IMG/VR virus record: IMGVR_UViG_3300023174_000037
Source: a virus
Taxonomy: Duplodnaviria; Caudoviricetes
Direction: 5' to 3' (one strand)
Length of the DNA stretch: 64,000 bases
Shown here: one piece after another, positions 16,981-33,593 of the stretch
Position numbering within the stretch: the first letter of the stretch is position 1
How the letters are laid out: each line of letters begins with the position of its first letter
Position numbers and translations under genes: made by a program
The notes under the pieces: generated by a model
The model's input: only the letters and a program-made list of their open reading frames with translations
What the model was told of the DNA's origin: nothing
The model's database searches: none

Positions 16981-17052
16981 TTATACAGGGCTGTAGGGGT
17001 TCTTTGTAGTGTCATAACCATCGTCCTCTGGGTATACTGGATAAGGGTTCAT
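16981..17052 (-). CDS. 23 aa micro-ORF MNPYPVYPEDDGYDTTKNPYSPV
   Basis: ATG overlaps the TGA of the deaminase gene; hand-translated. Confidence 0.6.
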   Translation of the reverse strand: MNPYPVYPEDDGYDTTKNPYSPV

Positions 17053-17681
17053 TTTCCATCCACGTGTAATTGACTGCCTTTGTTGAAGCTGGGGCTAAAT
17101 GGACTCTGTGCCACACGCCCACCTTTGCTTTGACTCCATGCATAACCAGCACGATGACCTGAACAGTCTTTGGTGCAGGTTGATCCTAAGAAACTGAGTT
17201 CGTTTAGATCATCTTTTAAAAATGTATCAGCAAAGGCTTTGCATAATTTTTCAATTTTGGGATTGCGAGTAATTTCTATGTGATACTGTTTACGTATGCG
17301 TTCCTGGCTAGGATCTTGATAGCCGGCATAAACTTTATGAACACCAACATCGTCAACAAGATCACTACAGTTAATGCCCGCACGTTCGTCCATGTCCTGA
17401 GTGCATGGGCTACAAGTTGTGATAATAATGCTACCAGCAGGAATCTCGCCAAAGCGGGCATAGTAACTGTCTATGGCTGCACGTTCACCGTGAACACGCT
17501 TGCCATCTTTGGTAGGATAATTGATGCCTACTACACAATTGTTATCAGGATCTAACACTGCGGCTGCTACCATACCTAGGTCTTGATCTTTTTGTTGGCC
17601 TTGAATGACCATTTCGCAAAGACGCACTAGAATTTGATCTAGCTTGTTGTGATTGCTAATTTGAAAATCTGATATCTTCAT
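17049..17681 (-). CDS. cytidine/deoxycytidylate deaminase-fold protein with a C-terminal Cys module
   Basis: HGERAAI (HxE) and CSPC (CxxC) zinc motifs; tail CTKDCSGH after LNE. Confidence 0.8.
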   Translation of the reverse strand: MKISDFQISNHNKLDQILVRLCEMVIQGQQKDQDLGMVAAAVLDPDNNCVVGINYPTKDGKRVHGERAAIDSYYARFGEIPAGSIIITTCSPCTQDMDERAGINCSDLVDDVGVHKVYAGYQDPSQERIRKQYHIEITRNPKIEKLCKAFADTFLKDDLNELSFLGSTCTKDCSGHRAGYAWSQSKGGRVAQSPFSPSFNKGSQLHVDGK

Positions 17682-20600
17682 TAGGCACCAAGAATTTGTC
17701 GAACTTGATTGACATAAGCACTGACATCACTGGTGCCAATTTCATCTACGTCACCCACATTGTAGGCCACTTCCTCTGCGGCCTGCATGACCTTGTCGGG
17801 ACCAAACTTCATCAACAGGTCTGTGTGTGCAACCATGATACGATTTAAGATAGCACGTTCAACTGCTTCACTGGCAGTGCTGGATTCTTCTCTAACAGGA
17901 TCTTTTAGCTTGCCGTAACGTGCTTCTAAATCTTTAAGAGCTTGTTTAATAATTTGTTTGTTGGCTGGATTAGAATCAACTGCCATCATACGGAATAACT
18001 TGTCGCGTTGATCCAAATACTCTTTGCGTGTAGTGGGTTCTTTCATCAAGCCTTCCGCCACACCTTGGTCTTTGTGTTTCTTAACGTCATTGGCAAATTG
18101 TTTTTTGGTTGCCTTTATGATTCCTGCAAAACGTTTGTCACCACGCTCAAAGTTGCCTGCTTTGTCGGCAGCACCAGCATCAAGTGCTGCGGCCTGTTTG
18201 TATTGACTTAATTTTTCATTGCTTAATTCATTTACAGTAGGGTTAGCACCGGTCAAGCTCACAGTCCACTTCTTACCGCTTGTAGCAGATTTCTTTTCTG
18301 CCCAACGACGCATGCCGTTTAGGTAAGCACGTTCTTCGGCACTGTCGGCGTAGCCTTTGCCTGGCACAACTTTCCAAACTTTACCGTTGATGGCAATGGC
18401 AATGTTGTTTCGCTCGTGACCTAGTTCGTGTTGCAGTTCTTTGCGTTTGAACTCACGACGCTCGTGATCACCTAGGCCTTCGCCCATTTCCATGTCCTTA
18501 CGATCTTTAGCACGTTTACGAGCATAGTCAGTCTGTGGATTCTTGGGTACGGGTTTAACCGGACGGCCAGCATCTACGTCACGCTCGCGTTGACGACGTT
18601 TTTGATAATCTGTCTGTGCTTCCGCCATACCTTTTGGTTTTTTGTGATGCTTCTTCATGTTGATAGCAATGGCCGCCTGCTGTGCTGGATTGGCAGCTTC
18701 GTCCAGTTGATCATCTGAGAAAGCCATAAAGTCATATGGTCCCCAGGGTTGGCCTGTGCGACCGTCATTGCCATCTAGATCACCATGCTCATAGTAGTCG
18801 TCACTGTAGATTTCTACACCGTCAAAGTCACTATTGTAATCAATATGTAGTTTACGTGTGACACCGTCGGGACAAACAATGCCACGATTCAGCAGGCGCT
18901 CTACGTCTTCTTTGCTCTTGATTCCTTTTTGCAAACTGCCAGTGTTGAATGTGCCATTGTACCAAGCACTGGCTAAAGCCTGGAAGTAATTGCCTGAGCC
19001 ACTTCCACCTGCAGGGGCAAATTCTTTTAAAGAGTTGCTTTTTGCTTTGGCAGCCGCTTCACGCTTCTTGCGGAAGATCTCACGGAAGTAATCATCATCT
19101 TCTTCCGGGCTGTAAGGATATGGATTGTGGTCACTACTGGGTCGTTTACGAGGTATATCTCCAGGACGGTCGTAATCAATGCCCGGCAAATCTTCCGGTC
19201 TAGCTTCTTCAACTTTGCCGGCGTTACGAGCTTTCCATGCAGTGGCATAGGCAATAGCTTTATCTTTGTCACTTAACCGGCCGTCTTTGCTCAAACTCTT
19301 TTTAATATGCTTGACCATACGTTCAGCTTTGGCACCAGGAGGAGCCACTTCTGTTACACCTTTGGCCTTGGCTTCTCGATCCAAATCTAGTCTACGTTGT
19401 AGGACAGCCGCTTGGTCAACATCTTTGTTCATTGACAAATCTTGTAAGGCTTTGCGTTTGGCCGCATAATCACCTTGAGGATCCTTTGAATTTAGTGCTG
19501 TTTCGGCTACCCGGTGGTTTATGCTCTCACCACCACCGTCTCCGCCGCCGTCACCTGATTCGCCGCCTCCATAATATGCATAGCCAGGAAAGAAATAACC
19601 TCCCATTGCTTTTGAAGATTTTTTCTTTTTCTTTTTCTTGCCTTCTGCTACACCTTCATCATACCAATCATTTTCTTCCTCTTGGTCAGCGTAATCATTA
19701 TAAGCAACATCACTTAGGTGCATACTGTGTTTGCCGTGATTGTATAAGTCCACAATAACAAATGAGCCACTTGGACTGAAATCATATATCTCACCAGTCT
19801 TGCCTTCAAACTCATTGGGTGCTATTACCACAACTGGATCGCCACGTTGTAGGCGTTGGCCTTCGTTTATAGCTTCTGCTGCTCGTTTTAAACTCTGAAC
19901 AGGCGGTTGTGTTTCTGCATCGTTGTCTGGAAATAAGTCAACCACATTACCACCTCTCATGCTAGCGGGTGCTGGATTATTGTTAATACCTTGAACTTGT
20001 CTTGGTTGTGACAAACTCCGAGCCATTTGACTCATCGCATTGGATTTTGATTTAAATTGTTGCACAGGCTCAGCTGGTTCAGCTTTGGCTGCAGGTTGGG
20101 CTTGGGGTTCTGCATCTGCAGGAGCATTTGGAATTAAATTAATTGCTCGAGATTGCGATCTATCAGTAGTATCAGTGCCGTCGGACTGACCTTGTCCGCT
20201 CATTTGGCCAATGGTCTGTGCTAGTTTTGCATTGGTTTGTTCTACATTTGCTAGTTGTTGTTCCAGACGGTCGTTTTCATTATCTAAACTGCCAATTTCT
20301 TTGCCTTGTTTTCGATCCAGAGCCACTAGCTGTTGTAGCAGTCGATCTTGTTCGGTGTTGGCACCTTTGATAGCCGACAATTGTTGTTGGCTTCGCTCGT
20401 TGGAATCTATTTCACTTTTGGCCACAGCTTCCACATCGCTTCGCGCCGCAGGATATTGAGCACGAAGTTTTTGTAACTCTCTAGCAACTTTAACATCGCC
20501 AGCGGCTACATCCGAATTGGAGTTAAACTTTTTTTTTTCTTGTAGTGGCAGTTCGCCCTGGGTAGGAATGCCTGGAAGTTCGGGCTGGACTGCACTATGC

Positions 20601-21376
20601 CAACCTAATCGTTTCAAAGTGGTCACGACTTCATCTGCGCTGGGCAATACACGATAGATAAAATGATTTTTCATTTGATCATTTTCTAAGCCATCGTAAT
20701 AGTCGCTGATCAAGTCAAGGCCTTTTTTATCTAAATGAATGTTGTCTTTGGGGTTAGGAAATTCTAATGTAACACTAGGAATATTACCCATGTTGGCTTT
20801 AAGTAATCGTTGGAAGTTGCCTACACCAAATGCTCTAGGCGACTGTGGGTAATCTCCATATGGGCTTTTTTCTTCACGAAATGCTTCTGGTGGGTTTTCT
20901 TTGAGCATACGCTCAACTTGTGCAACATAAGCACTGACATCACTTGAACCAATTTCGTCAACATCGCCCACATAGTCGGCCACATTGTCAATGGCTGCAC
21001 CTACCAGTTCAGGACCGTATTGTTTTAATAAATCGTGACGTTGCATCAAAATACGACGAGTGATTGCGCTGGCCACTGGACTGTCGTGTTGCTCATCCAA
21101 CTTGCCTTTAGTTGTGCCCAGACTTCCTGTAGGGTCCATACCGGTGGCAGGATTAATTTTAAAGTAGCTGTCACGTTCGGCTTTGATCTTTTGAAATTGT
21201 TTCTTAAGTCCAGCCAATGCCGCAGGATTCTTTTTGTAAGCAGGTTCTTTGGCACTATCTAACAGTTCTAACATTCGCATGTTTAGGTCATCAATGCGGC
21301 GAGCTTCAAGGTTGTCTACTGCACCTTCTTTGAGTTCTCGTTCATATTTTGTGTTGAATAGGTCTAATGCAAACAT
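17681..21376 (-). CDS. 1231 aa modular putative internal head polyprotein
   Basis: String of short unrelated modules, many starting right after [VLIM]xE; one domain is duplicated at both ends. Confidence 0.75.
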   Translation of the reverse strand: MFALDLFNTKYERELKEGAVDNLEARRIDDLNMRMLELLDSAKEPAYKKNPAALAGLKKQFQKIKAERDSYFKINPATGMDPTGSLGTTKGKLDEQHDSPVASAITRRILMQRHDLLKQYGPELVGAAIDNVADYVGDVDEIGSSDVSAYVAQVERMLKENPPEAFREEKSPYGDYPQSPRAFGVGNFQRLLKANMGNIPSVTLEFPNPKDNIHLDKKGLDLISDYYDGLENDQMKNHFIYRVLPSADEVVTTLKRLGWHSAVQPELPGIPTQGELPLQEKKKFNSNSDVAAGDVKVARELQKLRAQYPAARSDVEAVAKSEIDSNERSQQQLSAIKGANTEQDRLLQQLVALDRKQGKEIGSLDNENDRLEQQLANVEQTNAKLAQTIGQMSGQGQSDGTDTTDRSQSRAINLIPNAPADAEPQAQPAAKAEPAEPVQQFKSKSNAMSQMARSLSQPRQVQGINNNPAPASMRGGNVVDLFPDNDAETQPPVQSLKRAAEAINEGQRLQRGDPVVVIAPNEFEGKTGEIYDFSPSGSFVIVDLYNHGKHSMHLSDVAYNDYADQEEENDWYDEGVAEGKKKKKKKSSKAMGGYFFPGYAYYGGGESGDGGGDGGGESINHRVAETALNSKDPQGDYAAKRKALQDLSMNKDVDQAAVLQRRLDLDREAKAKGVTEVAPPGAKAERMVKHIKKSLSKDGRLSDKDKAIAYATAWKARNAGKVEEARPEDLPGIDYDRPGDIPRKRPSSDHNPYPYSPEEDDDYFREIFRKKREAAAKAKSNSLKEFAPAGGSGSGNYFQALASAWYNGTFNTGSLQKGIKSKEDVERLLNRGIVCPDGVTRKLHIDYNSDFDGVEIYSDDYYEHGDLDGNDGRTGQPWGPYDFMAFSDDQLDEAANPAQQAAIAINMKKHHKKPKGMAEAQTDYQKRRQRERDVDAGRPVKPVPKNPQTDYARKRAKDRKDMEMGEGLGDHERREFKRKELQHELGHERNNIAIAINGKVWKVVPGKGYADSAEERAYLNGMRRWAEKKSATSGKKWTVSLTGANPTVNELSNEKLSQYKQAAALDAGAADKAGNFERGDKRFAGIIKATKKQFANDVKKHKDQGVAEGLMKEPTTRKEYLDQRDKLFRMMAVDSNPANKQIIKQALKDLEARYGKLKDPVREESSTASEAVERAILNRIMVAHTDLLMKFGPDKVMQAAEEVAYNVGDVDEIGTSDVSAYVNQVRQILGA

Positions 21377-21386
21377 TTATTTTTCC

Positions 21387-22082
21387 TTATGCTTCGTCAA
21401 TGTAATCTGCTGAGTCGTTGATCTTGCGACGACGTGCCGCGAACATTTCCAAGGCCATCTCAGCCTCATCTAAATTTTTAAAACGTGTGGGCAATCGACG
21501 ATTGCCGTGGCGGATTTCAAAGCCAGTTTTTTCGTTGCCGTGAACTTCAAACATGCCACATTCGTTGGTAATGACTTTAACTGCAGCTGATTCTTTCATA
21601 CTGACACCTTCTTCACCTGGTGGCTGTTGGGCAGGAACAACACCACTCAAGGCCGAGTCTAGTTCGCCTTCGGTTTCTTTGACTTTTTGTTGTTTGGCAA
21701 CAAGAGCACGGTCCACTGTGCTTTTTTCTTTTATATCAGTGTCTTCGTGCTTTTTGTCTTTGAGATCTGAATCTTGGCGAATTTCGTCAGTGACCGTTTT
21801 TAAATAGTCAGCAAATGAAGATTTAACTCGATCCAAAACATCTTCACTGGTAATGGCTTCCTCCAACGGCTCTTCGTCATTTTCGACACTTTCTTCGGCA
21901 CCACCGACTAGTTTGCCAGCCATGGGATTTTTAGGATCTGTTTTGGCTGTGAGCACTGCTACAGTTTTGGGTTTGAATGTAGGGCCAAGTTGGTTTACAC
22001 TTCGTTGATTCGTGTTTAATCCTTCTTCGATAACACGAAGACGTTCAACAATGGTGTATATACTGTTATGGTCGTGTGCCAT
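21387..22082 (-). CDS. hypothetical protein (possible head core/scaffold-like)
   Basis: 231 aa, Glu-rich, within the polyprotein cluster. Confidence 0.7.
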   Translation of the reverse strand: MAHDHNSIYTIVERLRVIEEGLNTNQRSVNQLGPTFKPKTVAVLTAKTDPKNPMAGKLVGGAEESVENDEEPLEEAITSEDVLDRVKSSFADYLKTVTDEIRQDSDLKDKKHEDTDIKEKSTVDRALVAKQQKVKETEGELDSALSGVVPAQQPPGEEGVSMKESAAVKVITNECGMFEVHGNEKTGFEIRHGNRRLPTRFKNLDEAEMALEMFAARRRKINDSADYIDEA

Positions 22083-22085
22083 AGA

Positions 22086-22526
22086 TCATGCCCTTGCGTC
22101 CTTCAAATAACTCTTTAACTGCCACATGTATTTGCCATGACTGCTTTGGCGTTCTGCGGCAAAGTTTGCAACATCTTCACGACCTTCGGCACTGGCAGCA
22201 TCAAATACTTGCTTGCTCATGTCGACCATGGTCTGTGTATCTGCGAGTAATTCTTGTAACATTAATCGGGCACGAGGAACCTTGATCTGGTCCTGTATTT
22301 GTGATAATTCTTGGAAACGATTTAGGCTTCCTGGGGCATATTCTTCTGTGGTACGGATGTATTCAGCAATGGGATCCACAGCTGAATAAGCGTCTTCGTA
22401 GATTTTTTGGAAAAACTTGTGTAATTGACCAAAGTCTGGACCCTCCACGTTCCAGTGAAACATGTGGGCCTTTAAGTAATAGGCAAATGTTGAGGCCAAG
22501 TAAGTTTTTAACAAATCTGCTAGCAT
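22086..22526 (-). CDS. dps: Dps/ferritin-like DNA protection protein
   Basis: HMFHWNVEGPDFGQLHKFF, DPIAEYIR ferroxidase pattern, WQL. Confidence 0.92.
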   Translation of the reverse strand: MLADLLKTYLASTFAYYLKAHMFHWNVEGPDFGQLHKFFQKIYEDAYSAVDPIAEYIRTTEEYAPGSLNRFQELSQIQDQIKVPRARLMLQELLADTQTMVDMSKQVFDAASAEGREDVANFAAERQSSHGKYMWQLKSYLKDARA

Positions 22527-22732
22527 TATTTCTTCCGTTTATACTTTTTATACTCTGCAGGCGTGTTGGGCGTTGCATCGTCAGTAGTGTATTTAGCGCC
22601 AGAAAAGAAAGAACCACCATTTCTTGATAATGTAGTGCCTAACGGCATACTAACTGTGGCTATGCTGCCGCTGGTAGTGCTGGCCGTACTGGCGCCATCT
22701 TCTTGTAAGTTAACAAATTCATGCAATCTCAT
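22526..22732 (-). CDS. small hypothetical protein with CTS-like N-terminus
   Basis: MRLHEFVNLQE followed by a Ser/Thr/Gly-rich segment and a basic tail. Confidence 0.7.
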   Translation of the reverse strand: MRLHEFVNLQEDGASTASTTSGSIATVSMPLGTTLSRNGGSFFSGAKYTTDDATPNTPAEYKKYKRKK

Positions 22733-23028
22733 TGGTATGGGGCCTCGTCAATAATTGTTAGAACATTATTTTTTATAGTTCCAGGACCAAAATCCACACG
22801 CATATCTGTTACAGTTAGCCAGGCCAAGTGCGGCAAAACCAATTCATGACGTATTGTGTATTCACCAGGTTCGGCTTCAATTTGTAACAGTTCTTCAAGA
22901 TAATGCTCGGTCCAGCGCCAGGTGCGTTCAGCAAATAATTCATCGTTGACATAGGTACGATAAATGGGTTGAAAACTTTCCCATTCGCAATCAATATTAC
23001 ACAGCACCCGTATGAATTGTTTGGACAT
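22729..23028 (-). CDS. hypothetical protein
   Basis: 99 aa; TAAATA lies 4 nt before the ATG. Confidence 0.75.
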   Translation of the reverse strand: MSKQFIRVLCNIDCEWESFQPIYRTYVNDELFAERTWRWTEHYLEELLQIEAEPGEYTIRHELVLPHLAWLTVTDMRVDFGPGTIKNNVLTIIDEAPYQ

Positions 23029-23046
23029 GCTGTATTTAGTAGCGTT

Positions 23047-23235
23047 TTATTTGACTTCTTTTACACTGCCAACATGCCATTCTTCTACACCGTATTGTGC
23101 CCGCATTAACCTACGTGCTTCTGTGGCATTGGCGGCGGTTACAGTGACATCAATCCAGCCCACATAGTTGGGTTGTTGTATCCGGACCTGTGCAGTCCAT
23201 AATTTATACTTGGGGTATATGTCTCGGGCTTTCAT
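23047..23235 (-). CDS. small hypothetical protein
   Basis: MKARDIYPK start overlaps the stop of the upstream gene (ATGA). Confidence 0.7.
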   Translation of the reverse strand: MKARDIYPKYKLWTAQVRIQQPNYVGWIDVTVTAANATEARRLMRAQYGVEEWHVGSVKEVK

Positions 23236-25256
23236 CGTCCAGTCCATTTAGCTATCATACTAACACGGTTACTGCTATAAATGCCAGTGCCACGTCGTGT
23301 GCTACGCATACTACGTCGACCGGGCTCTACAGGAAATGTGTATCGAGTCCATGTGGCATTTTGATCTACAATTTGATCACCGCGTTTCTGGCGATAATCT
23401 TCAGTGGGCTCCATTGCATAACCCTTGACTTCTACACCCGGAATTGAATTTAACATGAGCCACATGGCTTGTCCAAATTTGGTCTGTGTTTCTCCGGTTT
23501 CAAGCGTGAGTTTAAGGATCGTGAGAGCAATACCATACAATGCTTTGCCCAGCCCGCGCCCACGATAATCAGGATCATTGGCCACAGTTTCTACACGCCA
23601 GGTTTTAAGCGGATCAAGGGTGGCACTAAGATCAAGTTCTGCGACCAATGTATCTCCATCAAAGATCATGATTTCCAAAAACTCAGGATCTTTTCGGTTC
23701 ACCGCATAAGAGAATTGACTACCACCTGGCAAGGGTTTAGTTTTGGGCTTTTTTGCCATGGGCATCAGTGTGTCCTTATCACCAAAGTCGCCTTGTGGTA
23801 TGCGGGCTATTTCATCTAACTCTGTTTCCCATACACGTTTACTACCGCGATTCTTATTCCAAAAATGTTTTCCGGCATCAGTCTGCTCGTGACTGCGTTT
23901 TACTTGATAGCCAAGATCTTTGGCATAATCATACATGACAGCCGCAATACCTTGTCCACGATATGCTTCATCAACTAATAAATCCCGTGCTATTAACGTT
24001 TTGCCCGCAACATCAAATACTACTCGTGCTAGATTACGGCCATGTGTATCTGCATCAATTGTTAATTCATTTCCATATTTGTGTGCTGTTAAATCAAGTC
24101 CATCTCTATATGCTTGTTTAACTGCAGGTTCGGCATCTTCAATGATGCCAGTGCTACGACGTAAGCGTAAATCAAAGTCTACATCAGAAATATAGTTACG
24201 AATAAACTTTTCATAATACTGTTGTGCAAGAGCCGGAGTATCAGCTTCAAAACGATCTACTATCTGTGAGCCGCCAGCAGGACGATCAGCGTGATAAATT
24301 TCATAGCCTTTGTTCAAGCGTTCTCTAGCTTGACTCATACGGTCCATTCTGTTACTGACTTGACGGTCAGCACGACTCAAATAACTTTGTAATCGTTCAT
24401 CGCTGATTTCATTGACATCTTGTTTACGAACTGGCTTCCAATGGAATACTGTCATGCCCATGCTGGGATATTCTTCATGCGCCCACTTTGGTCCTAAAAT
24501 GTTCTGCACCACTGGTACAAAGTATTTGCGATACAGGTTGGCGCGGTTGTCACCTTTGGCAGTAAATGATACGCCAGGCGGGCGAGTCTTGGCAATGTAT
24601 TCAGGCAATTGTTGTTTGATCACGTTGAGCACTGTGCTCAATATTCGAACAGTTGACTTACTAGCACTTGTAGGCTGACTTGGAGCATCATAGTCGCTGT
24701 TTACAGTAAATGTAATGTGTAAGGTACCGTTAAATTCGCTGCGATCAAAGAACACATCCACCCAATGTCCATCCACAGTAGAGTGAAACAAACTGCGTTT
24801 TCTTTTGCGGTTGGGTTTGTAGTCAGCTGGTGCGTTGCCTAATTCTGTAAGTTGTTGAACCGGCGCCCAGGCCTGTATATCTGATCTATTCAACAGGTTG
24901 GCGGCGGCCCAAGCTCTGTGATTGCCATCTATGATCCAACCTTTGGAGTCTACCACAATAGGTCTACGATCCACAAAGTTTGCACTATATTCACCCGCAT
25001 GGTCAGGGTCTACAGTTTGCACTCGATTGTATGGATCTTGTTCGGGCTCTTGTTCTTCGTCATCGTACTCTTGATCAGGTATGTGCAAACTGTTTAATGC
25101 AACACGTCGTAGTTCATACTGCGGATAGCGCAGGATCAATTTTTTTAAAAATCCACCACCCTGTTGGTCTTTGGGGTGTATGCCATCTACATAATTCCAC
25201 ACCTGTTCAGCTGACACAACTTTGGCAGATTCAATGACAAATTCACGGGCTTTCAT
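23232..25256 (-). CDS. 674 aa modular protein: ParB/Srx-like domain plus two GNAT acetyltransferase domains
   Basis: PIVVD...IIDGNHR (ParB); YRGQGIA and YRGRGLG (GNAT motif A); N-terminus MKAREFVIE. Confidence 0.8.
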   Translation of the reverse strand: MKAREFVIESAKVVSAEQVWNYVDGIHPKDQQGGGFLKKLILRYPQYELRRVALNSLHIPDQEYDDEEQEPEQDPYNRVQTVDPDHAGEYSANFVDRRPIVVDSKGWIIDGNHRAWAAANLLNRSDIQAWAPVQQLTELGNAPADYKPNRKRKRSLFHSTVDGHWVDVFFDRSEFNGTLHITFTVNSDYDAPSQPTSASKSTVRILSTVLNVIKQQLPEYIAKTRPPGVSFTAKGDNRANLYRKYFVPVVQNILGPKWAHEEYPSMGMTVFHWKPVRKQDVNEISDERLQSYLSRADRQVSNRMDRMSQARERLNKGYEIYHADRPAGGSQIVDRFEADTPALAQQYYEKFIRNYISDVDFDLRLRRSTGIIEDAEPAVKQAYRDGLDLTAHKYGNELTIDADTHGRNLARVVFDVAGKTLIARDLLVDEAYRGQGIAAVMYDYAKDLGYQVKRSHEQTDAGKHFWNKNRGSKRVWETELDEIARIPQGDFGDKDTLMPMAKKPKTKPLPGGSQFSYAVNRKDPEFLEIMIFDGDTLVAELDLSATLDPLKTWRVETVANDPDYRGRGLGKALYGIALTILKLTLETGETQTKFGQAMWLMLNSIPGVEVKGYAMEPTEDYRQKRGDQIVDQNATWTRYTFPVEPGRRSMRSTRRGTGIYSSNRVSMIAKWTGR

Positions 25257-26134
25257 CGCATAGCCACCTGATAAGATTTAAATTGGTCCTGTCGTGACTG
25301 TAGACCTTTTGATGCAGGATTGATTTTTTTAGTAACCGCATTAGTATTACTAAAGTCTTTGATTTTTGGAGCAACACGATTTTGCCAATACCATACAGCT
25401 ACCTTGGCGGCAACGTCGGGTCTAGCCGCCAGGTCTGGCTGTTGTGCTAGAGGTAGTCCTAGCGCGGCACCAGCACGAGTGTAATTGTCACGGCCGGTTA
25501 ATTGTATATAACCACGTCCTTTGTAGCGTTCGCCGTCGCCTTTGACTTTGTTGCCTAAGATCTTGGCCTTGCGTGGATTTTGTTCATATTTTTTAGTAAA
25601 GTAAGCTGGGCTACCACGTTCTTCCATGCTGGCAAAGTTTGCACTCTCATGAGCACATTGCGCCAAGAACTGTGCCAGTTCTGTGCCTTGGATGCCACTG
25701 GCCATGGCAACAGATCGTAATTGATTAACTGGACCTGCTTGTTGTGCAGGAGCTTGCACTTGTGCAACAGGCGCCTTTGCTTGTGGAGTTGGTGCGGTCA
25801 TTTTTGCATTGGCTGCGCTGCCACCCAAGGCCATTGCTCCGGCTAAGGCGGCACCACCTAACGCACTCTTCCAACCTTCTTCTAAGTCTTCTAGTTCTTC
25901 AGCTGGCCAACTAATAAAACTGTTACCGTTAACATCGCCAGCGCGAACAACAAATGCGCCGCCGTTGTCATAACCTTCGTCTTGACCAATCTCCCAGCCC
26001 ATTGCAGACAGAGCACGTTCAGCACGTGGATCTTCGTCACCTTGCCACCACTGTGCGGCTAACCGGTGTAGTATTTCTTCTTCATTGGGCTCTCTATCGT
26101 CACCACCTGCGGATGCAAATTCATACAGTCTCAT
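25253..26134 (-). CDS. modular protein with C-terminal GH19 (chitinase class I/lysozyme-like) domain
   Basis: QFLAQCAHES, YKGRGYIQLTGRDNY, VAVWYW, VTKKIN. Confidence 0.9.
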   Translation of the reverse strand: MRLYEFASAGGDDREPNEEEILHRLAAQWWQGDEDPRAERALSAMGWEIGQDEGYDNGGAFVVRAGDVNGNSFISWPAEELEDLEEGWKSALGGAALAGAMALGGSAANAKMTAPTPQAKAPVAQVQAPAQQAGPVNQLRSVAMASGIQGTELAQFLAQCAHESANFASMEERGSPAYFTKKYEQNPRKAKILGNKVKGDGERYKGRGYIQLTGRDNYTRAGAALGLPLAQQPDLAARPDVAAKVAVWYWQNRVAPKIKDFSNTNAVTKKINPASKGLQSRQDQFKSYQVAMR

Positions 26135-27109
26135 TTAGCAATTCCAACGACGACGTGCCTTGCAAATAGCTTTGTCTGGAGTCTTGGCACATGAAATATT
26201 GTGCATCTTCATTTGTCCACGACTGCGTGAGCAATAACTCTTTCTACGCTTTGACGCTTTGCTACCTTTTTTCAACTTTGAAGGCTTGGTAGTCACTGCT
26301 GTTTGTAGTTTGCTACCAGGATGCTCGCGGCGATATGTTTTAACTGCTTTACGACTCATACCGTCTGTCTTGTCTCGATTGTTGGCTTTTTGCCAGGCTT
26401 CGGATTCCATTAATGGGTCAGAGGTCACAGCAAACACATACAGTTCATCTTCTGTGAGACTTTCTAAATCCGCCCAAACTGCTTCTGCATCAACACCATT
26501 GTGTTCAGCAATGGTTTCAATGATACTCTCAATAAGATCAAATTCTTCATGCAGTTCAGCCCTGGCTTCCATACTTAGGCCTGTGCCCAGTTCAAGAATT
26601 CTGCTGAGTTCATCCATGTTCATCTCCTTGTCTTCATTTTTTACACAGTTTGGCACACGTTTACCAAACAGTTCTTTCATGCCTTCTTTGTGATAGCCTT
26701 TCCAGCAGGCTTCATCTAGATTTTGATTGTGCTCGTGTGTTTCACACATGCCACAGTCTTCACAGACCATTTCCATTTCAACACTTTCATTGTGTTTCTT
26801 TTTGCCTGCACAATGCGCCCGTTGGCTAAAACCTTTGGGATGGCTACAGTTAATACTGCTTTTGTATTTCTGACTCCACTTTTCATCCAGTTGATCTACA
26901 CTCTCACTTTTGTTGCCATAATTGGCCGCGCCTTTTTTACGGCATTGTACCAAGCGTCCTGACGCATAGGCACTGGGCCAAACTTTTGCTGAAGCCTTGA
27001 CCTTGTAATAGCAAGCATCTTTCTTTTCGGCAAGTATTAAATCTGTAAATGCAGGACCGCCGCATTCTGGGCAGGTTTGATGAGATTCAAATAAGTCAGT
27101 TATAATCAT
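26135..27109 (-). CDS. 324 aa modular protein of basic Cys-containing mini-domains
   Basis: CPECGG, CEDCGMC, CWKGY...PNCV and other modules, each following FE, LAE, LDE or LME. Confidence 0.75.
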   Translation of the reverse strand: MIITDLFESHQTCPECGGPAFTDLILAEKKDACYYKVKASAKVWPSAYASGRLVQCRKKGAANYGNKSESVDQLDEKWSQKYKSSINCSHPKGFSQRAHCAGKKKHNESVEMEMVCEDCGMCETHEHNQNLDEACWKGYHKEGMKELFGKRVPNCVKNEDKEMNMDELSRILELGTGLSMEARAELHEEFDLIESIIETIAEHNGVDAEAVWADLESLTEDELYVFAVTSDPLMESEAWQKANNRDKTDGMSRKAVKTYRREHPGSKLQTAVTTKPSKLKKGSKASKRRKSYCSRSRGQMKMHNISCAKTPDKAICKARRRWNC

Positions 27110-27366
27110 TTTTTCTTAGTGGCCACGTTGATGGCCGCTCCTTTTCTATTGGCGTTAGGATCCTGCCTGCGTTTACGAGCTGCCGCTGATGCACGACCTT
27201 TTTTGCCCAGGGCATGTGCTTTGGCCTGTGGCAAACATTTGGGCTTGCCTTCTTTTTCAGATCCACGGGCACAGTCACCACGAATCTTGCCATCGGGCCC
27301 AAAACGTACCCATTTTTCTTTGAACCAGTCACGTAGATTTTCAGTTACAAACTCACTGGCTCTCAT
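27106..27366 (-). CDS. small basic protein with CTS-like N-terminus
   Basis: MRASEFVTE-NLRDWFKEKW...; very Lys/Arg-rich. Confidence 0.8.
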   Translation of the reverse strand: MRASEFVTENLRDWFKEKWVRFGPDGKIRGDCARGSEKEGKPKCLPQAKAHALGKKGRASAAARKRRQDPNANRKGAAINVATKKK

Positions 27367-30300
27367 TTTTTCTTTCCTCTACGCATATTTATTTGCCAAC
27401 GTGCCAGCTGGCCTTTACGACCCGGTGCTTTTGCAGCCTTTTCTAATTGAGCCATAGTGGCACCTTTGGGTATGCCGTGACGCTGACTGTCTCCAGGACG
27501 TCCTGGACCTTTACCGTCAGCAAAGTTTTCCGCCACACCCGACGCTTGTTTTGTCAGCGTATAAGTTGCGCCACCTGGCATATCACTTCTTTCCAAATCG
27601 TAACCGCTGCCGCTGATGTAGCGTCGAAGCATTCTATCATACAGTCTAGCTCTACTGCCGGTAGGGTCATCCTCTTTTTCTGCACTGAAATTCAACCGCG
27701 CTGGTTTACGCTTGGCGATGAATTGTTGCATGGCAGCGAGCACAGTGGCAAACACTCGTGACGCATCACCTTCACCGGTGATCTCCATGTTTTCGTCACG
27801 CTCAAACTCCACCATCCAACTGTTGTCGCCTTGAGCCATGAACAGCACAATTAGTTCACTGCCGTCATCCAAGTCAGCAGTGGCATGCCAGTCACCATTT
27901 TGTTTGCGCCATTCAACGGCATAAGGTTGATCAAAGGCTTCGTTTATTGTCTCGGTCGGAGTCCATTCAAAACTAGAAACTGGCACTGAATATTTGTCAC
28001 TGAGTTTTTGTAGCAGTGCATCTAGCGTGGCAACAGGAATATTTTTAGCAACTACACGTTGGCCACGACTGCCTGGAACTGGACGATAGTATACATCAAC
28101 ATGTTCAGGATCAATGATGCGTGATTCTGCTACAGCAAATTGATTGCCCAATTGTTTTGCTAAACTTTTTTGTCTATTGATATTGGCCGGAGTGCCTGTA
28201 CCACTTTGTTTGTGATCAAACACACCATACAGTTTGATCACAGTAGGGTCACGACCATCGACACTGTAGAACAAACTGAGATCTCTGGTTAAATGCACAT
28301 GGCGCAACTTTGGCACTTTGGCCAAAGGACCAGCTGCAACAAACGGTGTGTCTTTGCCCCAAGGACGACCAGGGTTGTCGGTTTTAAATGCTAAAAATTC
28401 CTGTATCTTTGCTGGCAAGTTGGGCAGTTGGTTAGACTTGTCAGCTACTGTTTGATCAAACATACTGCTCTTTCTAATTTCAACATTATTGCCAGACTCT
28501 GACAGCATCCATGCACCTTGATCTATTTCCAGCAACAGGTTGACCAAGGCAGGATCAATACTTTCGATCATGACCGGTACTACTTCAATCTGTGTCATGT
28601 CCGCATCAGCAGGTCCATTTTGTTGCAACCATAAAGAGGCTATTCTGTTAGCATCGGCTTGACTGTTGCCTACGCCACGGAATCTATACAGTTCTTGCCC
28701 GGTATCAGTATCCAAGATTCGCCACTGTCCACTAAAACTGTTGCCTGGTGGTGCCGAACTGGCCTGATTTGTGGCGCCAAACAAGTCTCTGAATGAATAA
28801 TCAATGTTGCGGCCATCGGTTCTGTCCTGCGGGAAGTTCTGTTCTATATCCAAGGGCACTTCGGGAATGGATCCAGTTAATCTAGCCTGTAAGTCTGCGC
28901 TGTCTTGGGCGTTGTCCACAGCCTGGTTAGCATCTGCAGCCTTGGTCATTGTTGGAGCTGAGTCAGTGGTTTTGGGTCTCACGTCAAACAGATCAGGTTG
29001 TTCAGCGCCTACGCTCTTTAACCAATTTTTGCCATCTGTTTTCGCATCAGCAGCAGTGTCGCTTAAGAAGGTATGAACCACATGTCCGGTTTCTTTTTCG
29101 TACACTTCCCAATAAGGAACACCACGTTCGTTTGTGTCCTGTTTGGGTTTTTGTTGTTTAGGGTCTGTAATACGCTTGGCCAACTTGGCACGTGGTGTCA
29201 GTGTTTTAGGATCCACATACGGACGCACATTGAATCCTATGTTTTGATTAAGATACTTGTCAAATACTTTGTCAGCGGCAGCACCTTTGTTTGCAGCTTG
29301 AACTATTTCAAGTGTTGCACCAGTTTTAACATCATACACTTCCCACTGTTGATTGTCACTCATGTTGACCAATTGGTATTCACCCGAGTCCAAGGCTTCA
29401 CGACCGTATTTCATCCATACTCTATTTTTAACTTCGTCTTCTTGGAAGCCACGATATTCAGCACCTGGTACTGCGGTCCAGACGCCGTTGACCTTTTGAT
29501 ACAACTTGAAATACTGATTTATTTTCTTTTCATTACCTAGAGTTTTTTCGGCCCAGAGTTTCTTGAGTTGTTCTTTGTCTAGTTCACCTGCGGCATACTG
29601 ACTAAACAAGGCCAGTTGACTGTCGCCTTCGGGGGCAATTAATTTGTATAATTTTTTAGCATACTCTCTACGATCTGTGCTGGCGCTGGCAGCAATTTGC
29701 ATGGCACGGGCATAACGCAACATGGTACTTTGTAATTTTTCAGGATCAGCTGATTCTTCAGCCAACCAATCGCCTCCGGCACTGCGGAATTCTATGTAGC
29801 CATCTTGTATGTGAGCACTGGTATACTTGCCTTGTCCTACACCCTTTTGAATTTCTCGTTGTGCTAATTCAAGCAAGCCATGTTGCATCAACTTCAAAGC
29901 ACCGGCTGGATCTGCACGACCTGATTTGAGATTTTCACGGAAGCTCTTCATTGCTGACTTGGTGTAAGTGTTGGCTTCGCGGCCAAATTGTTGTAGAACA
30001 TATTCGTCACCTAGGAACAGAATAAGTTTTAGGTAGTCAACATCACCACCTTTGTATGGAACACTAACGCCCATGTGTAGGCCAGTTGAATCGTTAGTGT
30101 AAGCATTGCCTTCTGTGCTGTTGGCCCAGTCTGTGACTTGTTGTAATTTTTCCAAGGCCACTAGTAATGGCATTGGAGGACTTACTATTTCCAAACCGTA
30201 GTCTTCACGATCATCTGGACTCAAACTTGAATCTGGCTCTACAATCCATTGGCCTTCTTTACGTGTGGTACTGTGATAATTTGAACTTACTTTGACTGGC

Positions 30301-33300
30301 ATGTCTACAACACCTTGTAAACTGTTTCCAATATCATCCCAATCACGTGACCCATCATTGCCGCCGCCACCGGTCATGTAGGGCCAGTCTAAACCGTACT
30401 CACTGGCCACATCACTCATGTAGCGTAGGCCCGCATCATCAAAGAAACCAGAGTCGTCATCTATCTGATAATTGTCGCGGAAATCATCCAGTGCGGCATC
30501 CCAGTTTGCACCTTCTTTTCTTACTTCGTCGGCTACTAGATCATCCAATAGGCCTTCGGCTTCGCTTTGTGCATCTAGGTATTTTTCATACAGGGGATTT
30601 TCTTTTGCGTAGGCTTGCTGTTCGCTTGATCGGGTAAATTTAGGAGCAGTTTCTCCAGCTTTGATAATTTCATTTATTTCTTCATCTGACAAGTCCAACA
30701 AGGCCAACTGTTTTTGTATCTCGTCGTCCTCATCCCAATCACCTTCGTCAACCAGCACTTTACGAATCAAATCTTCGGCTTCGTCTCTAAATTCTCGAGT
30801 CATTTGTTCGTCGTACCACTCGTAATAGGCTTCATCCAACTGTTCTTGTAGTCGTGCTTCTTGCCTAGAACTTAGTCCACCATATTCGCCGTTGTTAAAG
30901 AAGTCTATAATCTGACTGATACTGCGAACACGTTCGTCGGCATCATAGTCGGGTTCCATTTCGTAATCACTGTCACCATTGTTGGTGGTGTCACGGAAGA
31001 TCAACTCAGCTTCAAATCCGGCACGTATACCTTCGGCTTCTGGACTAGTGGCCCATTTCATCAGGGCCGACGGTGACATTTTAACTTCGTCCAACTGTTC
31101 ACTTTCGGCCAAGGCAAACAGTTTCTTTTCTGCTACCTGCTTGTTGAACATTGTATAACTACGCAAGAATTCTTTTTCTTGTCGTGTAAGTTCGCGGCCT
31201 TGTTGGACTTTGGCCACTAAAAATTTATAATAGTCTGCTTTGTCACGATTCTTGGATACCGGTGCTTGAATATTTTCTTTAAACTGCGCCAGCTCTAATG
31301 CTAATTTTTCAAACAGGCCATTGGCCTTGGCAATCTGCGGAACGCCTTGCTTGTTTGTTTTGAGATTTAATTTGTTGGCTTCTTTGCCAATTTGTCCCGG
31401 CTTGATGTCCACTGTGAGTGCCATACTATAACGTGGATCCTTGGCCTGTTTCTTTGTGGGAATATAACCCGATGCACCTTCGTTGGTTGGCCCAGACGGC
31501 TTTTGCTGATTTTGTTTTTGTAGTTGATATAGCCGACTTTGATTTTGTGCGTTGACTTCACCGCGCTGAGCACGAATAAAATTGTTTAGTTCTTGAGCAA
31601 CGTCAGCTTGTATTACTGTGCTATTGTATTGTTTGGCATTGTAAAGAACACGAGCCGCATCCATTGGCCGCATGCCTTGTTGAGTAGCACAACCACTGAG
31701 ACTGCCTCCGCCGATGATGCAGGCACTTAATGCGGCCACAGCCGATCCTTTAAGGCCTTCATCAACATCTTCTTCGTGTAGGTTGTTGGCTTGTTTCTTT
31801 GTGGAAATGTAACTTGATGCTGATTCAGTGACAGAAAGTCCATGTTTTTGAATGAACTCTTGCATTTTGTTTTCAATCCATTGATCTTCTTGACCAGCCA
31901 TTCTTATTTTATATAGATTTTTGTCATTGTATTCATAGCGACTTTGGTCTTGAAAGTATTTGGAGATTTGTTCAAATGCAGCAAAAAGCTCTGGAGTCTT
32001 GGTATACTTTGATCGTTGATAGTTGGAATATTTAGAAATTTTAGTTTGTGCCCATTTTGCCCGCAGATCTTTTTCTGGAACTTGATAGTCGCTAGCTATT
32101 TTTTCTACTTCTTTTTTTATTGTTTCTGGAGTAACATCCAAGTTTCTGTCAACTCGATAGGTTATGATCTGTATTAATTTTTTGTAGGCATCTTCTAGTC
32201 CAGATTTGGGCCTGGACATAACCGCAGGATTCTTAACAGTTGAACCAGTGACGGATATGGCTCGTTTGACTTGGTTGACCAACTGATCATAAGTGTAGGT
32301 CCGCGGGGCCACACTGCGATAAATCAGTTGATCACCTTGGTACACATAAAAATATTCACCTTTGACCACTACCTTGTAGCCCAATATACCATAGGCTTTT
32401 TCAATTTCTTCTTTTAAGTTTTCTGCTTGACCCACCGCAAAGTATTCTGGATGTAGTCTAGCATAGTCACGCATCAACACACCAGCTCTGGCATTGGCTT
32501 CGTTTTCATACGGACTGCCAGTTTCGCCAGCATCAGTAGGAACCGACTCACGTTCATGTTGATGACGATGTGTAAGTTCGTGTGCCACTGTTCTGAGCAC
32601 ATCCATAATATGGCGATGTCCCCAGGCCACTTCTAATAGATTATGATCGTCGATGTAACGACCAAATGTTTTGTTTCTTACTGACCATTGTGGATCTTTA
32701 CGCAACTTGACCATCGGCATGCTTTTGAGTTTTAATTCTTTAAAACAAAAATCAATAAAGTCCGTTAGTATTTCTTCATCAGACAGTGTCGCAGGTGCCG
32801 CTTCAAGAGAAACTGTGTCAGCTTCGACCACTGTGGGGGTGCGGAATCCGTATGTTACTCTGGGTTTGGTTGTTTTTTCTGCTAAACTAAATTCTCGATC
32901 CTTGGCAGCATTTCTAGCATCATACAGGTCTTTAATTAGTCCTTGACTACGCAATATTTTGAATGCTAAATTTTCTGGACCAAACTCGCCATGTGCTTCT
33001 AATCCAGTTTGGCGCATCCGTTTAATTTTTTCTGCCAGACTAGTCATGCGTTTTAAACTGCCGCTCTTGATAGCTGACTCAATTTGGCGGCCAACTTTTT
33101 CAAACTTGTTGCGTGTGCTGGTGTCGTTGACTACGCTCTTGACTCTACGTGGAACCTGTATCCAGTCGTTGTTCAACAAGGAATATATGCCCTGACTGAT
33201 GTGCGGCTTGTCAGCATCTTGCACATACAATTCCACATCAGCACCACCAATCTTAATATCGTGTTGTTCGTTATACTGAAACTTTTTGGCATCAAACAGT

Positions 33301-33581
33301 TCACGGTAAACAGGGTTATCTGGCATGTCTACTACCAAGTGCAAATCAATATCGCTGTTGGGAGTATATGTGTAAGCCGCATTTGATCCGCTGATAGTAA
33401 TGTCTTGAATTGCTAGATCTGTTACGCCTAAAAACTCACGAAAATCGTCGGCTATTTCCAGCAGGCGTTCACGCACTTCAGGCCGCAAATGTTCACGATC
33501 GTCCCACAGGCGTGGATTTAATTGATCATTAAATTTAACAGCGTCTTCAAGATTATAAGAGTCTAATTCCGTGATGTTCAT
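27363..33581 (-). CDS. 2072 aa multidomain polyprotein (pol-beta NTase, zincin, amidoligase, RelE/YafQ-like and others)
   Basis: SGSN...SDIDLH; HELTH...YENEA; GFEAE, EPDSSL, LEIVSP, STGLH, IEFRS; RHVHLTRDLSLFY. Confidence 0.85.
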   Translation of the reverse strand: MNITELDSYNLEDAVKFNDQLNPRLWDDREHLRPEVRERLLEIADDFREFLGVTDLAIQDITISGSNAAYTYTPNSDIDLHLVVDMPDNPVYRELFDAKKFQYNEQHDIKIGGADVELYVQDADKPHISQGIYSLLNNDWIQVPRRVKSVVNDTSTRNKFEKVGRQIESAIKSGSLKRMTSLAEKIKRMRQTGLEAHGEFGPENLAFKILRSQGLIKDLYDARNAAKDREFSLAEKTTKPRVTYGFRTPTVVEADTVSLEAAPATLSDEEILTDFIDFCFKELKLKSMPMVKLRKDPQWSVRNKTFGRYIDDHNLLEVAWGHRHIMDVLRTVAHELTHRHQHERESVPTDAGETGSPYENEANARAGVLMRDYARLHPEYFAVGQAENLKEEIEKAYGILGYKVVVKGEYFYVYQGDQLIYRSVAPRTYTYDQLVNQVKRAISVTGSTVKNPAVMSRPKSGLEDAYKKLIQIITYRVDRNLDVTPETIKKEVEKIASDYQVPEKDLRAKWAQTKISKYSNYQRSKYTKTPELFAAFEQISKYFQDQSRYEYNDKNLYKIRMAGQEDQWIENKMQEFIQKHGLSVTESASSYISTKKQANNLHEEDVDEGLKGSAVAALSACIIGGGSLSGCATQQGMRPMDAARVLYNAKQYNSTVIQADVAQELNNFIRAQRGEVNAQNQSRLYQLQKQNQQKPSGPTNEGASGYIPTKKQAKDPRYSMALTVDIKPGQIGKEANKLNLKTNKQGVPQIAKANGLFEKLALELAQFKENIQAPVSKNRDKADYYKFLVAKVQQGRELTRQEKEFLRSYTMFNKQVAEKKLFALAESEQLDEVKMSPSALMKWATSPEAEGIRAGFEAELIFRDTTNNGDSDYEMEPDYDADERVRSISQIIDFFNNGEYGGLSSRQEARLQEQLDEAYYEWYDEQMTREFRDEAEDLIRKVLVDEGDWDEDDEIQKQLALLDLSDEEINEIIKAGETAPKFTRSSEQQAYAKENPLYEKYLDAQSEAEGLLDDLVADEVRKEGANWDAALDDFRDNYQIDDDSGFFDDAGLRYMSDVASEYGLDWPYMTGGGGNDGSRDWDDIGNSLQGVVDMPVKVSSNYHSTTRKEGQWIVEPDSSLSPDDREDYGLEIVSPPMPLLVALEKLQQVTDWANSTEGNAYTNDSTGLHMGVSVPYKGGDVDYLKLILFLGDEYVLQQFGREANTYTKSAMKSFRENLKSGRADPAGALKLMQHGLLELAQREIQKGVGQGKYTSAHIQDGYIEFRSAGGDWLAEESADPEKLQSTMLRYARAMQIAASASTDRREYAKKLYKLIAPEGDSQLALFSQYAAGELDKEQLKKLWAEKTLGNEKKINQYFKLYQKVNGVWTAVPGAEYRGFQEDEVKNRVWMKYGREALDSGEYQLVNMSDNQQWEVYDVKTGATLEIVQAANKGAAADKVFDKYLNQNIGFNVRPYVDPKTLTPRAKLAKRITDPKQQKPKQDTNERGVPYWEVYEKETGHVVHTFLSDTAADAKTDGKNWLKSVGAEQPDLFDVRPKTTDSAPTMTKAADANQAVDNAQDSADLQARLTGSIPEVPLDIEQNFPQDRTDGRNIDYSFRDLFGATNQASSAPPGNSFSGQWRILDTDTGQELYRFRGVGNSQADANRIASLWLQQNGPADADMTQIEVVPVMIESIDPALVNLLLEIDQGAWMLSESGNNVEIRKSSMFDQTVADKSNQLPNLPAKIQEFLAFKTDNPGRPWGKDTPFVAAGPLAKVPKLRHVHLTRDLSLFYSVDGRDPTVIKLYGVFDHKQSGTGTPANINRQKSLAKQLGNQFAVAESRIIDPEHVDVYYRPVPGSRGQRVVAKNIPVATLDALLQKLSDKYSVPVSSFEWTPTETINEAFDQPYAVEWRKQNGDWHATADLDDGSELIVLFMAQGDNSWMVEFERDENMEITGEGDASRVFATVLAAMQQFIAKRKPARLNFSAEKEDDPTGSRARLYDRMLRRYISGSGYDLERSDMPGGATYTLTKQASGVAENFADGKGPGRPGDSQRHGIPKGATMAQLEKAAKAPGRKGQLARWQINMRRGKKK

Positions 33582-33587
33582 AGATAG

Positions 33588-33593
33588 TATTTA
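33588..33593 (-). promoter_or_regulatory. TAAATA late-promoter-like core heading the polyprotein cluster
   Basis: TAAATA-6 nt-ATG immediately downstream of a terminator. Confidence 0.6.

Follow-up and report, generated by a model that had tools for sequence, protein, structure and literature searches.

Nine of the twelve genes in a packed operon of IMGVR_UViG_3300023174_000037, an IMG/VR virus record (Duplodnaviria; Caudoviricetes), begin with related short peptides. The 64,000 nucleotides of this record that were analysed are referred to as the window, and the shared peptide as the tag. It is likely that these shared N-termini are capsid-targeting propeptides of the kind known from phage T4, which would be removed by a gp21-type protease. 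Judged from the sequences, this protease probably also divides the operon's giant proteins into cargo domains, and the tag probably marks proteins that are injected into the host. The source of the window is an uncultured jumbo phage of a lake/freshwater clade. The strongest argument for the propeptide reading is a coincidence of gene fission and fusion: stand-alone tagged genes of relatives correspond to domains inside the large proteins of the window, and the alignments begin exactly behind the sequence [L/I/V]-x-E.

Shared N-termini of the operon

The preliminary description had reported nine shared N-termini in this gene cluster, and all nine are present at the positions it gave, on the minus strand. 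The clustering that it claimed was likewise recovered: the loose pattern M-x3-[DE]-[FLI], which was defined after seeing the data, starts 9/12 cluster genes and 0/~60 other called genes of the window (Fisher p = 2.6e-9), and follows only 1.7% of all window ATGs. Widening position 6 to include V or M brings in two genes outside the cluster (starts 51991 and 41266). The peptide begins at the initiator methionine and is common to otherwise unrelated proteins of a single phage. The operon and its N-terminal tags are listed below, with a slash at each predicted cut and the proteins named by their length in amino acids (aa).

17049..33593, minus strand: twelve-gene packed operon; products in order of 2072, 86, 324, 293, 674, 62, 99, 68, 146, 231, 1231 and 210 aa
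33555..33581 (start 33581), minus strand: tag of the 2072-aa polyprotein, MNITELDSYNLE, read MNITE/LDSY; Alt-like, with ITE-5 here and ITE-6 in T4 Alt
27340..27366, minus strand: tag of the 86-aa protein, MRASEFVTE/N; canonical
27086..27109, minus strand: tag of the 324-aa protein, MIITDLFE/S; Alt-like
26120..26134, minus strand: tag of the 293-aa GH19 muramidase, MRLYE/FAS; short, aligns to ...ELDE/FAP inside a fused 409-aa relative (L001)
25230..25256, minus strand: tag of the 674-aa protein, MKAREFVIE/S; canonical
23215..23235, minus strand: tag of the 62-aa protein, MKARDIY; weak, no nearby [LIV]-x-E
22700..22732, minus strand: tag of the 68-aa protein, MRLHEFVNLQE/D; read from the sequence and relatives
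21326..21376, minus strand: candidate longer propeptide of the 1231-aa protein, MFALDLFNTKYERELKE/G, with the start MFALDLF; L-x-E/G kept in relatives
17655..17681, minus strand: tag of the 210-aa deaminase-like protein, MKISDFQIS; weak, no cleavage-type site nearby

The 86-aa and 674-aa proteins have the form EF[IV]xE, of which the 68-aa protein carries a longer version; the forms in the 324-aa and 2072-aa proteins are Alt-like. For the 86-aa protein, alignments to the PHROG profile and to cyanophage homologues begin at residue 10, directly after the predicted cut. The start of the 62-aa gene at 23235 is an internal ATG of a 66-aa open reading frame and has an ATGA stop/start overlap like other genes of the operon. 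Three cluster genes, encoding the 99-aa, the 146-aa Dps-like and the 231-aa proteins, are untagged. The N-terminus MLADLL of the Dps-like protein was considered as a tag and rejected: it is conserved in related loci even behind extra preceding residues, and for this reason it is read as part of the Dps protein.

A capsid targeting sequence (CTS) of the T4 internal proteins was reportedly described by Mullaney and Black in 1996. GenBank entries confirm the sequence quoted for it in the preliminary description, MKTYQEFIAE, for IPII and IPIII; IPI begins MKTFKEF, its first 19 residues ending in ITE, and Alt begins MELITELFDE. In the window motif, F corresponds to T4 F7, [IVL] to I8 and E to E10. 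The functional residues of the T4 CTS (an F7 equivalent, a hydrophobic P3 and a P1 Glu) have counterparts in the tags of the 86-aa, 674-aa, 68-aa, 324-aa and 2072-aa proteins and lack them in those of the 210-aa and 62-aa proteins. The N-termini of T4 gp67 and gp68 gave no close match to the tag, gp67 having LIE-6. In T4, targeting involves residues 4 and 7 of the CTS and processing involves residues 8 and 10, and gp21 cleaves after L/I-x-E (PMC9026906); Alt is cleaved at ITE-6, with a C-terminal cut at LTE-619 (PMC5694885).

The tag in relatives and across IMG/VR

Seventeen related IMG/VR loci were fetched by homology to the 674-aa protein (loci are cited by L numbers). They carry a sharper form of the tag, M-R/K-A-x-E-F-[I/V/L]-x-E, on many unrelated proteins with differing domain contents, examples being MRASEFITE, MRATEFLIE, MRAKEFIIE, MRAHEFIVE and MKANEFITE. 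The codons of conserved tag residues vary synonymously (GAA/GAG, TTT/TTC, AGA/CGN, GCN), and selection therefore acts on the peptide. Two features that were not used in defining the motif co-vary with it in the window and the 17 loci, namely [LIV]-x-E with its Glu at residue 8-12 (39/58 motif N-termini vs 24/345 others) and K or R at position 2 (37/58 vs 43/345), although these cross-locus counts include orthologues, so that p-values overstate independence.

The genome-wide scan that the preliminary description proposed was carried out on relatives, where strict patterns lie well above controls. The DNA pattern for M-x3-E-F-h-x-E (h being a hydrophobic residue, codon NTN) has 14 matches against 0 in the control in five large related contigs, that for MRAxEF has 22 against 0 in related genomes, and a further strict pattern has 24 against 1 in related genomes. 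MRAxEF heads 4-6 genes in each complete related genome of 338-367 kilobases (kb), at several places, so that the tag extends beyond a single cluster; the claim that it does not occur outside the cluster stands for the window but fails for the relatives. With a looser DNA pattern the complete relative G001 gave four extra matches, of which three were short spurious open reading frames and one was an AAA-type ATPase with an uncertain start.

The exact nonapeptide MRAxEFITE is present in at least 120 IMG/VR stretches, against a chance expectation of less than 1 by rough estimate, and in the 80 loci returned 88/88 matches stand at the starts of open reading frames. Among the matches listed, most head ~125-aa tandem genes, and the other tagged proteins are GH19, GNAT and DUF6934 proteins and a T7 gp0.7-like kinase. 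The ~125-aa tandem family matched no PHROG or Pfam family, and tblastn of a tagged ~125-aa protein against GenBank phages gave no cultured-phage match. It is found in L045, L046, L069, L080, L118, L122 and many other loci, each gene starting MRAxEFITE; in the cases in which the sequence ahead of it was read, the gene before it has the ending ...FKGY[P/K][R/K] and a stop that overlaps the next ATG (ATGA). The family looks like a counterpart of the T-even internal-protein genes. The kinase is a 365-aa protein (L055:6798-7895, minus strand) that starts MRATEFITE and matches the PHROG of the T7 gp0.7-like protein kinase, a host transcription inhibitor; given this tagged protein, a host-takeover kinase may be delivered from the capsid.

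Cleavage-type sites within the large proteins

The gene fission and fusion events can be read directly at the junctions. MRASEFITE/AFDQPY corresponds to ...TINE/AFDQPY in the 2072-aa protein, with ...VTE/, ...ILE/ and ...LEE/ in relatives; stand-alone MRAEEFLIE/LGNAP corresponds to ...QLTE/LGNAP in the 674-aa protein, and stand-alone MKANEFITE/KWSQKY to ...QLDE/KWSQKY in the 324-aa protein. Further fused junctions read ...NLDE/ACW, ...QLDE/VKMSPS and ...ELDE/FAP. Since the ends of the tags coincide with the [LIV]-x-E boundaries of the fused domains, the tag ends where the mature domain begins. By the same comparison, the large proteins appear to carry cleavage-type sites at their domain joints:

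31758..31766, minus strand: V-D-E/G site of the 2072-aa protein, residues 606-608, read from the sequence; directly precedes a hydrophobic, lipobox-like stretch
31086..31094, minus strand: L-D-E/V junction of the 2072-aa protein, residues 830-832; the homologous region of stand-alone tagged genes (L011, L014, L017) begins here
27939..27947, minus strand: I-N-E/AFDQPY junction of the 2072-aa protein, residues 1879-1881, before the DUF6934-like domain; MRASEFITE/AFDQPY in L009, MKISE/VFNQPY in L016
26882..26890, minus strand: L-D-E/KWSQKY junction of the 324-aa protein, residues 74-76; MKANEFITE/KWSQKY in L001 and L003
26711..26719, minus strand: L-D-E/ACWKGY junction of the 324-aa protein, residues 131-133; from alignment to relatives
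24843..24851, minus strand: L-T-E/LGNAP junction of the 674-aa protein, residues 136-138; MRAEEFLIE/LGNAP in L011
23811..23819, minus strand: L-D-E/IARIPQG junction of the 674-aa protein, residues 480-482; from alignment to relatives

Hydrophobic signal-peptide-like stretches follow two sites of this type. One lies after V-D-E/ in the 2072-aa protein (31689-31757, minus strand, residues 609-631) and ends in a lipobox-like L-S-G-C; the other lies after L-E-E/ in the 293-aa protein (25805-25876, minus strand, residues 87-110) and ends in A-N-A. On fragments released from these two proteins, cleavage could uncover a signal for export or lipidation. In L005 (3402-4619, plus strand) two tags stand in series, MTLYELFEGDN and then MRSNEFITEKW, in what looks like a fusion of two tagged genes, and this double tag shows the ease with which the cassettes fuse and split.

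Protease, head module and late-promoter-like elements

Peptidase_S77, the gp21 family, is encoded by 13/15 large related contigs (4/5, 5/5 and 4/5), all four complete ones included. The head module of the relatives runs in the order of a 73-80 aa protein, a ~300-aa protein, the protease, a large protein in the position of T4 gene 22 and then the capsid gene. The small head protein beside the protease itself starts MIISELF or MILNEFW, and the capsid protein has L-A-E at the position of the T4 gp23 cut, LTE/A. The late promoter of T4 is TATAAATA; an element that resembles it precedes the operon, and a second TAAATA lies inside:

33586..33593, minus strand: TAAATACT, T4-late-promoter-like, ending 4 nucleotides before the ATG of the first gene
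23033..23038, minus strand: second TAAATA element, within the cluster, 5 nucleotides before the ATG of the 99-aa gene

The distance between the first of these and the ATG implies a very short leader. The same TAAATA-type element precedes the relatives' small head gene next to the protease, and TAAATA stands at most 16 nucleotides from the ATG in 13/74 motif genes vs 24/386 others (odds ratio 3.2). The complete 8-mer is not clearly enriched in the window, with 6 found vs 2.7 expected and 5/100 shuffles reaching 6.

Proposed mechanism and its alternatives

In the mechanism that is suggested here, the operon would be transcribed late and each product would carry a tag of 5-17 residues, either in the core form M-[R/K]-[A/L/I]-x-[E/D]-[F/L]-[I/V/L]-x-E or in a second, Alt-like form, M-x-I-[T/S]-[E/D]-L-[F/D]. 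The tag would bind the scaffolding core of the prohead, by which the protein would be built into the head, and the gp21-type (Peptidase_S77) prohead protease would cleave after the Glu of [L/I/V]-x-E. The protease would also cleave the 2072-, 674- and 324-aa proteins, and probably the 1231-aa protein, at equivalent linkers into domain-sized cargo. The cargo released in this way would comprise the nucleotidyltransferase, an HExxH peptidase-like region, the amidoligase, the GNATs, the GH19 muramidase and small Cys-rich modules, and would be ejected together with the DNA.

Every comparative test that was run agrees with a T4-type targeting/propeptide family, which is what the preliminary description had proposed for these N-termini; nevertheless, only 4-5/9 tags of the window are canonical, and this is one of several points that weigh against the mechanism. 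In the 210-aa and 62-aa proteins, position 5 of the tag is D and there is no [LIV]-x-E nearby. The overall density of [LIV]-x-E in the cluster proteins is not above expectation, and because of this the density was dropped from the argument: [LIV]-x-E alone is weak evidence, and only its position at domain boundaries is counted. The phage's own protease and head genes are absent from the 64-kb window, the cross-locus statistics are inflated by orthologues as noted above, and the tag is found beyond this cluster in relatives. The strict motif is not enriched in the cultured relatives Phosso, Atu_ph07, 121Q, XaC1 and Vibrio 2.275.O (0-1 matches each). Most copies of T4-GC119, the cyanophage homologue discussed below, are without the tag, that of P-RSM4 starting MATNEIIE. 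Finally, it is from sequence that we infer late timing, core binding, cleavage, sufficiency of the peptide, presence in the virion and ejection. As to the single matches in cultured relatives, that of Phosso contains a stop and that of 121Q is antisense to annotated genes.

It is possible that the tag is a protease-removable propeptide or linker only, perhaps keeping enzymes inactive until maturation, and that incorporation into the head occurs via other parts of the proteins. The domain-boundary coincidence bears directly on cleavage and not on targeting, some tags of the window have just 5 residues, and the targeting and processing residues of T4 are separable (PMC9026906). However, this is unlikely for three reasons: the most conserved residues, among them the E-F pair and the M-R/K-A start, lie upstream of P3-P1 and would be superfluous in a pure cleavage site; T4 F7 is a targeting residue; and dozens of unrelated proteins have retained one and the same nonapeptide.

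Explanations that give the peptide no part in head assembly are less probable again. The conserved gene starts could be without a role in the protein, being recombination cassettes or translation-initiation elements for coupled or near-leaderless translation that have been copied between genes. ATGA overlaps at most genes, almost leaderless first genes, the strong preference for ATGAGAGC and the variability of T-even internal-protein loci (PMC9026906) are consistent with this, but it is made very unlikely by the constancy of the residues while their codons vary synonymously, and by a conserved unit that stops at domain boundaries and gives way to [LIV]-x-E linkers where domains are fused. Moreover, untagged genes of the same operons use the same kinds of junction, and the tag matches functional residues of the T4 CTS. 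Slightly less probable still is a sorting or stability signal unrelated to the capsid, such as one for export, membrane association, degradation (a degron) or chaperone recognition, for which the Clp-type AAA+ ATPase encoded in the window, with its strong match to an ATP-dependent protease PHROG, and the hydrophobic signal-like stretches inside two of the proteins could be cited. The peptide is acidic and amphipathic, unlike a signal peptide, it co-occurs with the gp21-type protease in 13/15 large contigs and it is common to the small head gene beside that protease; furthermore, we know of no bacterial sorting signal of this form. Chance or post-hoc pattern bias deserves mention given that the pattern was drawn from the data and that its loose expression follows 1.7% of ATGs, yet it is effectively refuted by the Fisher test in the window (p ~3e-9), by strict patterns with 14 vs 0 and 22 vs 0 matches in independent genomes and by at least 120 exact IMG/VR matches where the rough expectation is less than 1.

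Host defences are first countered by the proteins injected along with phage DNA, which as a rule can be identified only through virion proteomics on cultured phages. If the tag works like the T4 CTS, the injected proteins of uncultured giant lake phages could be listed from sequence and their mature ends predicted. This raises the possibility, which we put forward tentatively, that the nonapeptide M-R/K-A-x-E-F-[I/V/L]-x-E together with the [L/I/V]-x-E linkers is a sequence-readable cargo code for a large clade of uncultured freshwater jumbo phages. Were this so, a genome would suffice to read off the whole injected proteome. The 4-6 genes with the strict tag (MRAxEF) in each complete related genome, and more with degenerate tags, would specify a cargo that includes the unannotated ~125-aa tandem family and the T7 gp0.7-like kinase; polyproteins would be split into many effectors, in some of which an export signal would become accessible only once the cut had been made. 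The capsid-targeting mechanism of T4 would then be older than the divergence of these distant relatives from the T-even phages. Loading and processing by the T4 system would reach far beyond the T-even phages and would be tied to the class of polyvalent proteins, whose route of delivery and processing has so far only been predicted. A second, divergent tag would also be at hand for engineering protein cargo in T4-type heads; the use of the peptide for packaging foreign proteins, which the preliminary description had raised, is a prospect only, because the phage is uncultured.

The operon and neighbouring genes

The junctions of the operon are mostly ATGA or 1-nucleotide overlaps, or the genes abut directly. 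Its products, in order, gave the following in domain searches:

2072-aa protein: nucleotidyltransferase phrog_36119 (E = 2e-42); HExxH motif with a weak Peptidase_M78 match (E = 0.017); Amidoligase_2; DUF6934-like C-terminus
86-aa protein: small module, phrog_23735
324-aa protein: DUF6321
293-aa protein: GH19 muramidase
674-aa protein: two GNAT domains
62-, 99- and 68-aa proteins: no domain found in the search
146-aa protein: Dps/ferritin
231-aa protein: no domain found in the search
1231-aa protein: no clear Pfam domain
210-aa protein: deaminase-like

A ParB-like domain had been suspected in the 674-aa protein; its first 135 residues gave no ParB-type match in Pfam at E up to 1. In the 1231-aa protein (17681-21376, minus strand) a segment of ~60 residues near the N-terminus, ending ...GDVDEIGSSDVSAYVAQV, recurs at the extreme C-terminus, as ...GDVDEIGTSDVSAYVNQV, and the middle of the protein has a Lys run followed by GGYFFPGY. 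An element KKK...GGYF[YF]PG stands directly after the tag in IMG/VR proteins of L064, L083 and L092. Lys-rich tails (...RRGKKK, ...ATKKK) are found at the C-termini of several cluster proteins (window 27106-27120, 27363-27380 and further gene ends); the A/G-rich codons of these tails lie just upstream of the next ATG and may act as a ribosome-binding region at ATGA-coupled junctions.

Outside the operon, the Clp-type AAA+ ATPase has 758 aa (37021-39297, minus strand; phrog_4871, E = 4e-233, a PHROG family named ATP-dependent protease), and beside it lies a protein (39370-40155, minus strand) whose N-terminus, MADYYQTLGV, resembles a DnaJ J-domain; the two form a phage-borne chaperone or unfoldase pair adjoining the cargo operon. 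The family-B DNA polymerase (11289-13946, minus strand) has 50% identity to that of Sinorhizobium phage Phosso, 47% to that of Agrobacterium phage Atu_ph07 and ~42% to those of the 121Q/GAP32 group. Against GenBank phages, no match was found for the cluster DNA by megablast or for the 674-aa protein by tblastn.

Comparison with known systems

In both this system and that of the T4 CTS, an N-terminal peptide beginning at the initiator methionine is carried by otherwise unrelated proteins encoded by tandem or clustered genes, has an E-F pair followed by [I/V/L]-x-E and occurs in a lineage with a gp21-type protease. The length of the propeptide is variable in both, at 5-17 residues here and 10-19 in T4. 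The tag differs from the T4 CTS in being one residue shorter between Met and E-F (9 residues vs 10) and in having R/K-A in place of K-T-Y. It stands on enzymes and giant multi-domain proteins besides small proteins, and it belongs to uncultured lake phages known from sequence, with complete relatives of 338-367 kb. T4 Alt provides a parallel for some of the tags, given that MIITDLFE/S and MNITE/LDS of the window and MIISELFDP of the relatives' small head protein share I-[T/S]-[E/D]-L-[F/D] with it, that the tagged protein is a large injected enzyme and that more than one cut site per protein is possible. However, Alt is a single ADP-ribosyltransferase, whereas polyproteins with several predicted internal cuts are encountered here.

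In the phiKZ-like giant phages (201phi2-1, phiKZ and SPN3US), a distant gp21-related protease cuts many head and ejection proteins after Glu at an S/A-x-E motif, and N-terminal propeptides have been suggested as targeting sequences. Cutting of head and ejection proteins after Glu by a gp21-related protease is thus common to those phages and to the gp21-type scheme proposed here; the differences are that the protease there is of family S80 with a P3 preference for S/A/G, and that there is no shared nonapeptide.

Cyanophage T4-GC119 is homologous to the 86-aa and 324-aa proteins and is built from the same modules as they are. This protein (P-SSM2 PSSM2_123, P-RSM4 PRSM4_120, S-P4 AYR01841) has the small Cys/Lys-rich modules and the DUF6321 C-terminus of these proteins, with the difference that its modules are fused in one protein. 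It is encoded between genes 15 and 16, within a structural block, and the protein is found in virions: purified particles of S-SM1 yielded 13 peptide counts for it (PMC3037559 Table S8). Tag-like N-termini may exist in cyanomyoviruses too, homologues of cluster proteins in two T4-like cyanophages starting MNLQEFVDK (a nucleotidyltransferase of Synechococcus phage DSL-LC02, L039:301-420) and MATNEIIEK (GC119 of P-RSM4, L168:601-).

Polyvalent proteins of several domains, peptidases and lysozymes among them, are predicted to be virion cargo that is delivered with the DNA, as set out in the part of the account by Iyer et al. 2017 (PMC5512222) drawn on here. The large proteins of this operon belong to that class, which is marked by 2-15 unrelated effector domains, often a metallopeptidase and a lysozyme, in shuffled architectures: effector domains of unrelated kinds, a peptidase-like region and a lysozyme among them, are strung together in very large chains and are extensively shuffled, 49 proteins being linked through shared modules by all-against-all BLAST. 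In that same part of PMC5512222, release is proposed to occur via the proteins' own metallopeptidase domains, and neither an N-terminal targeting tag nor head-protease linkers are described; here, in contrast, the linkers look like head-protease sites. In summary, what these comparisons point to is most likely a known mechanism in a new form, in which a T4-type targeting/propeptide system would operate on the polyvalent proteins of a large clade of uncultured freshwater jumbo phages.

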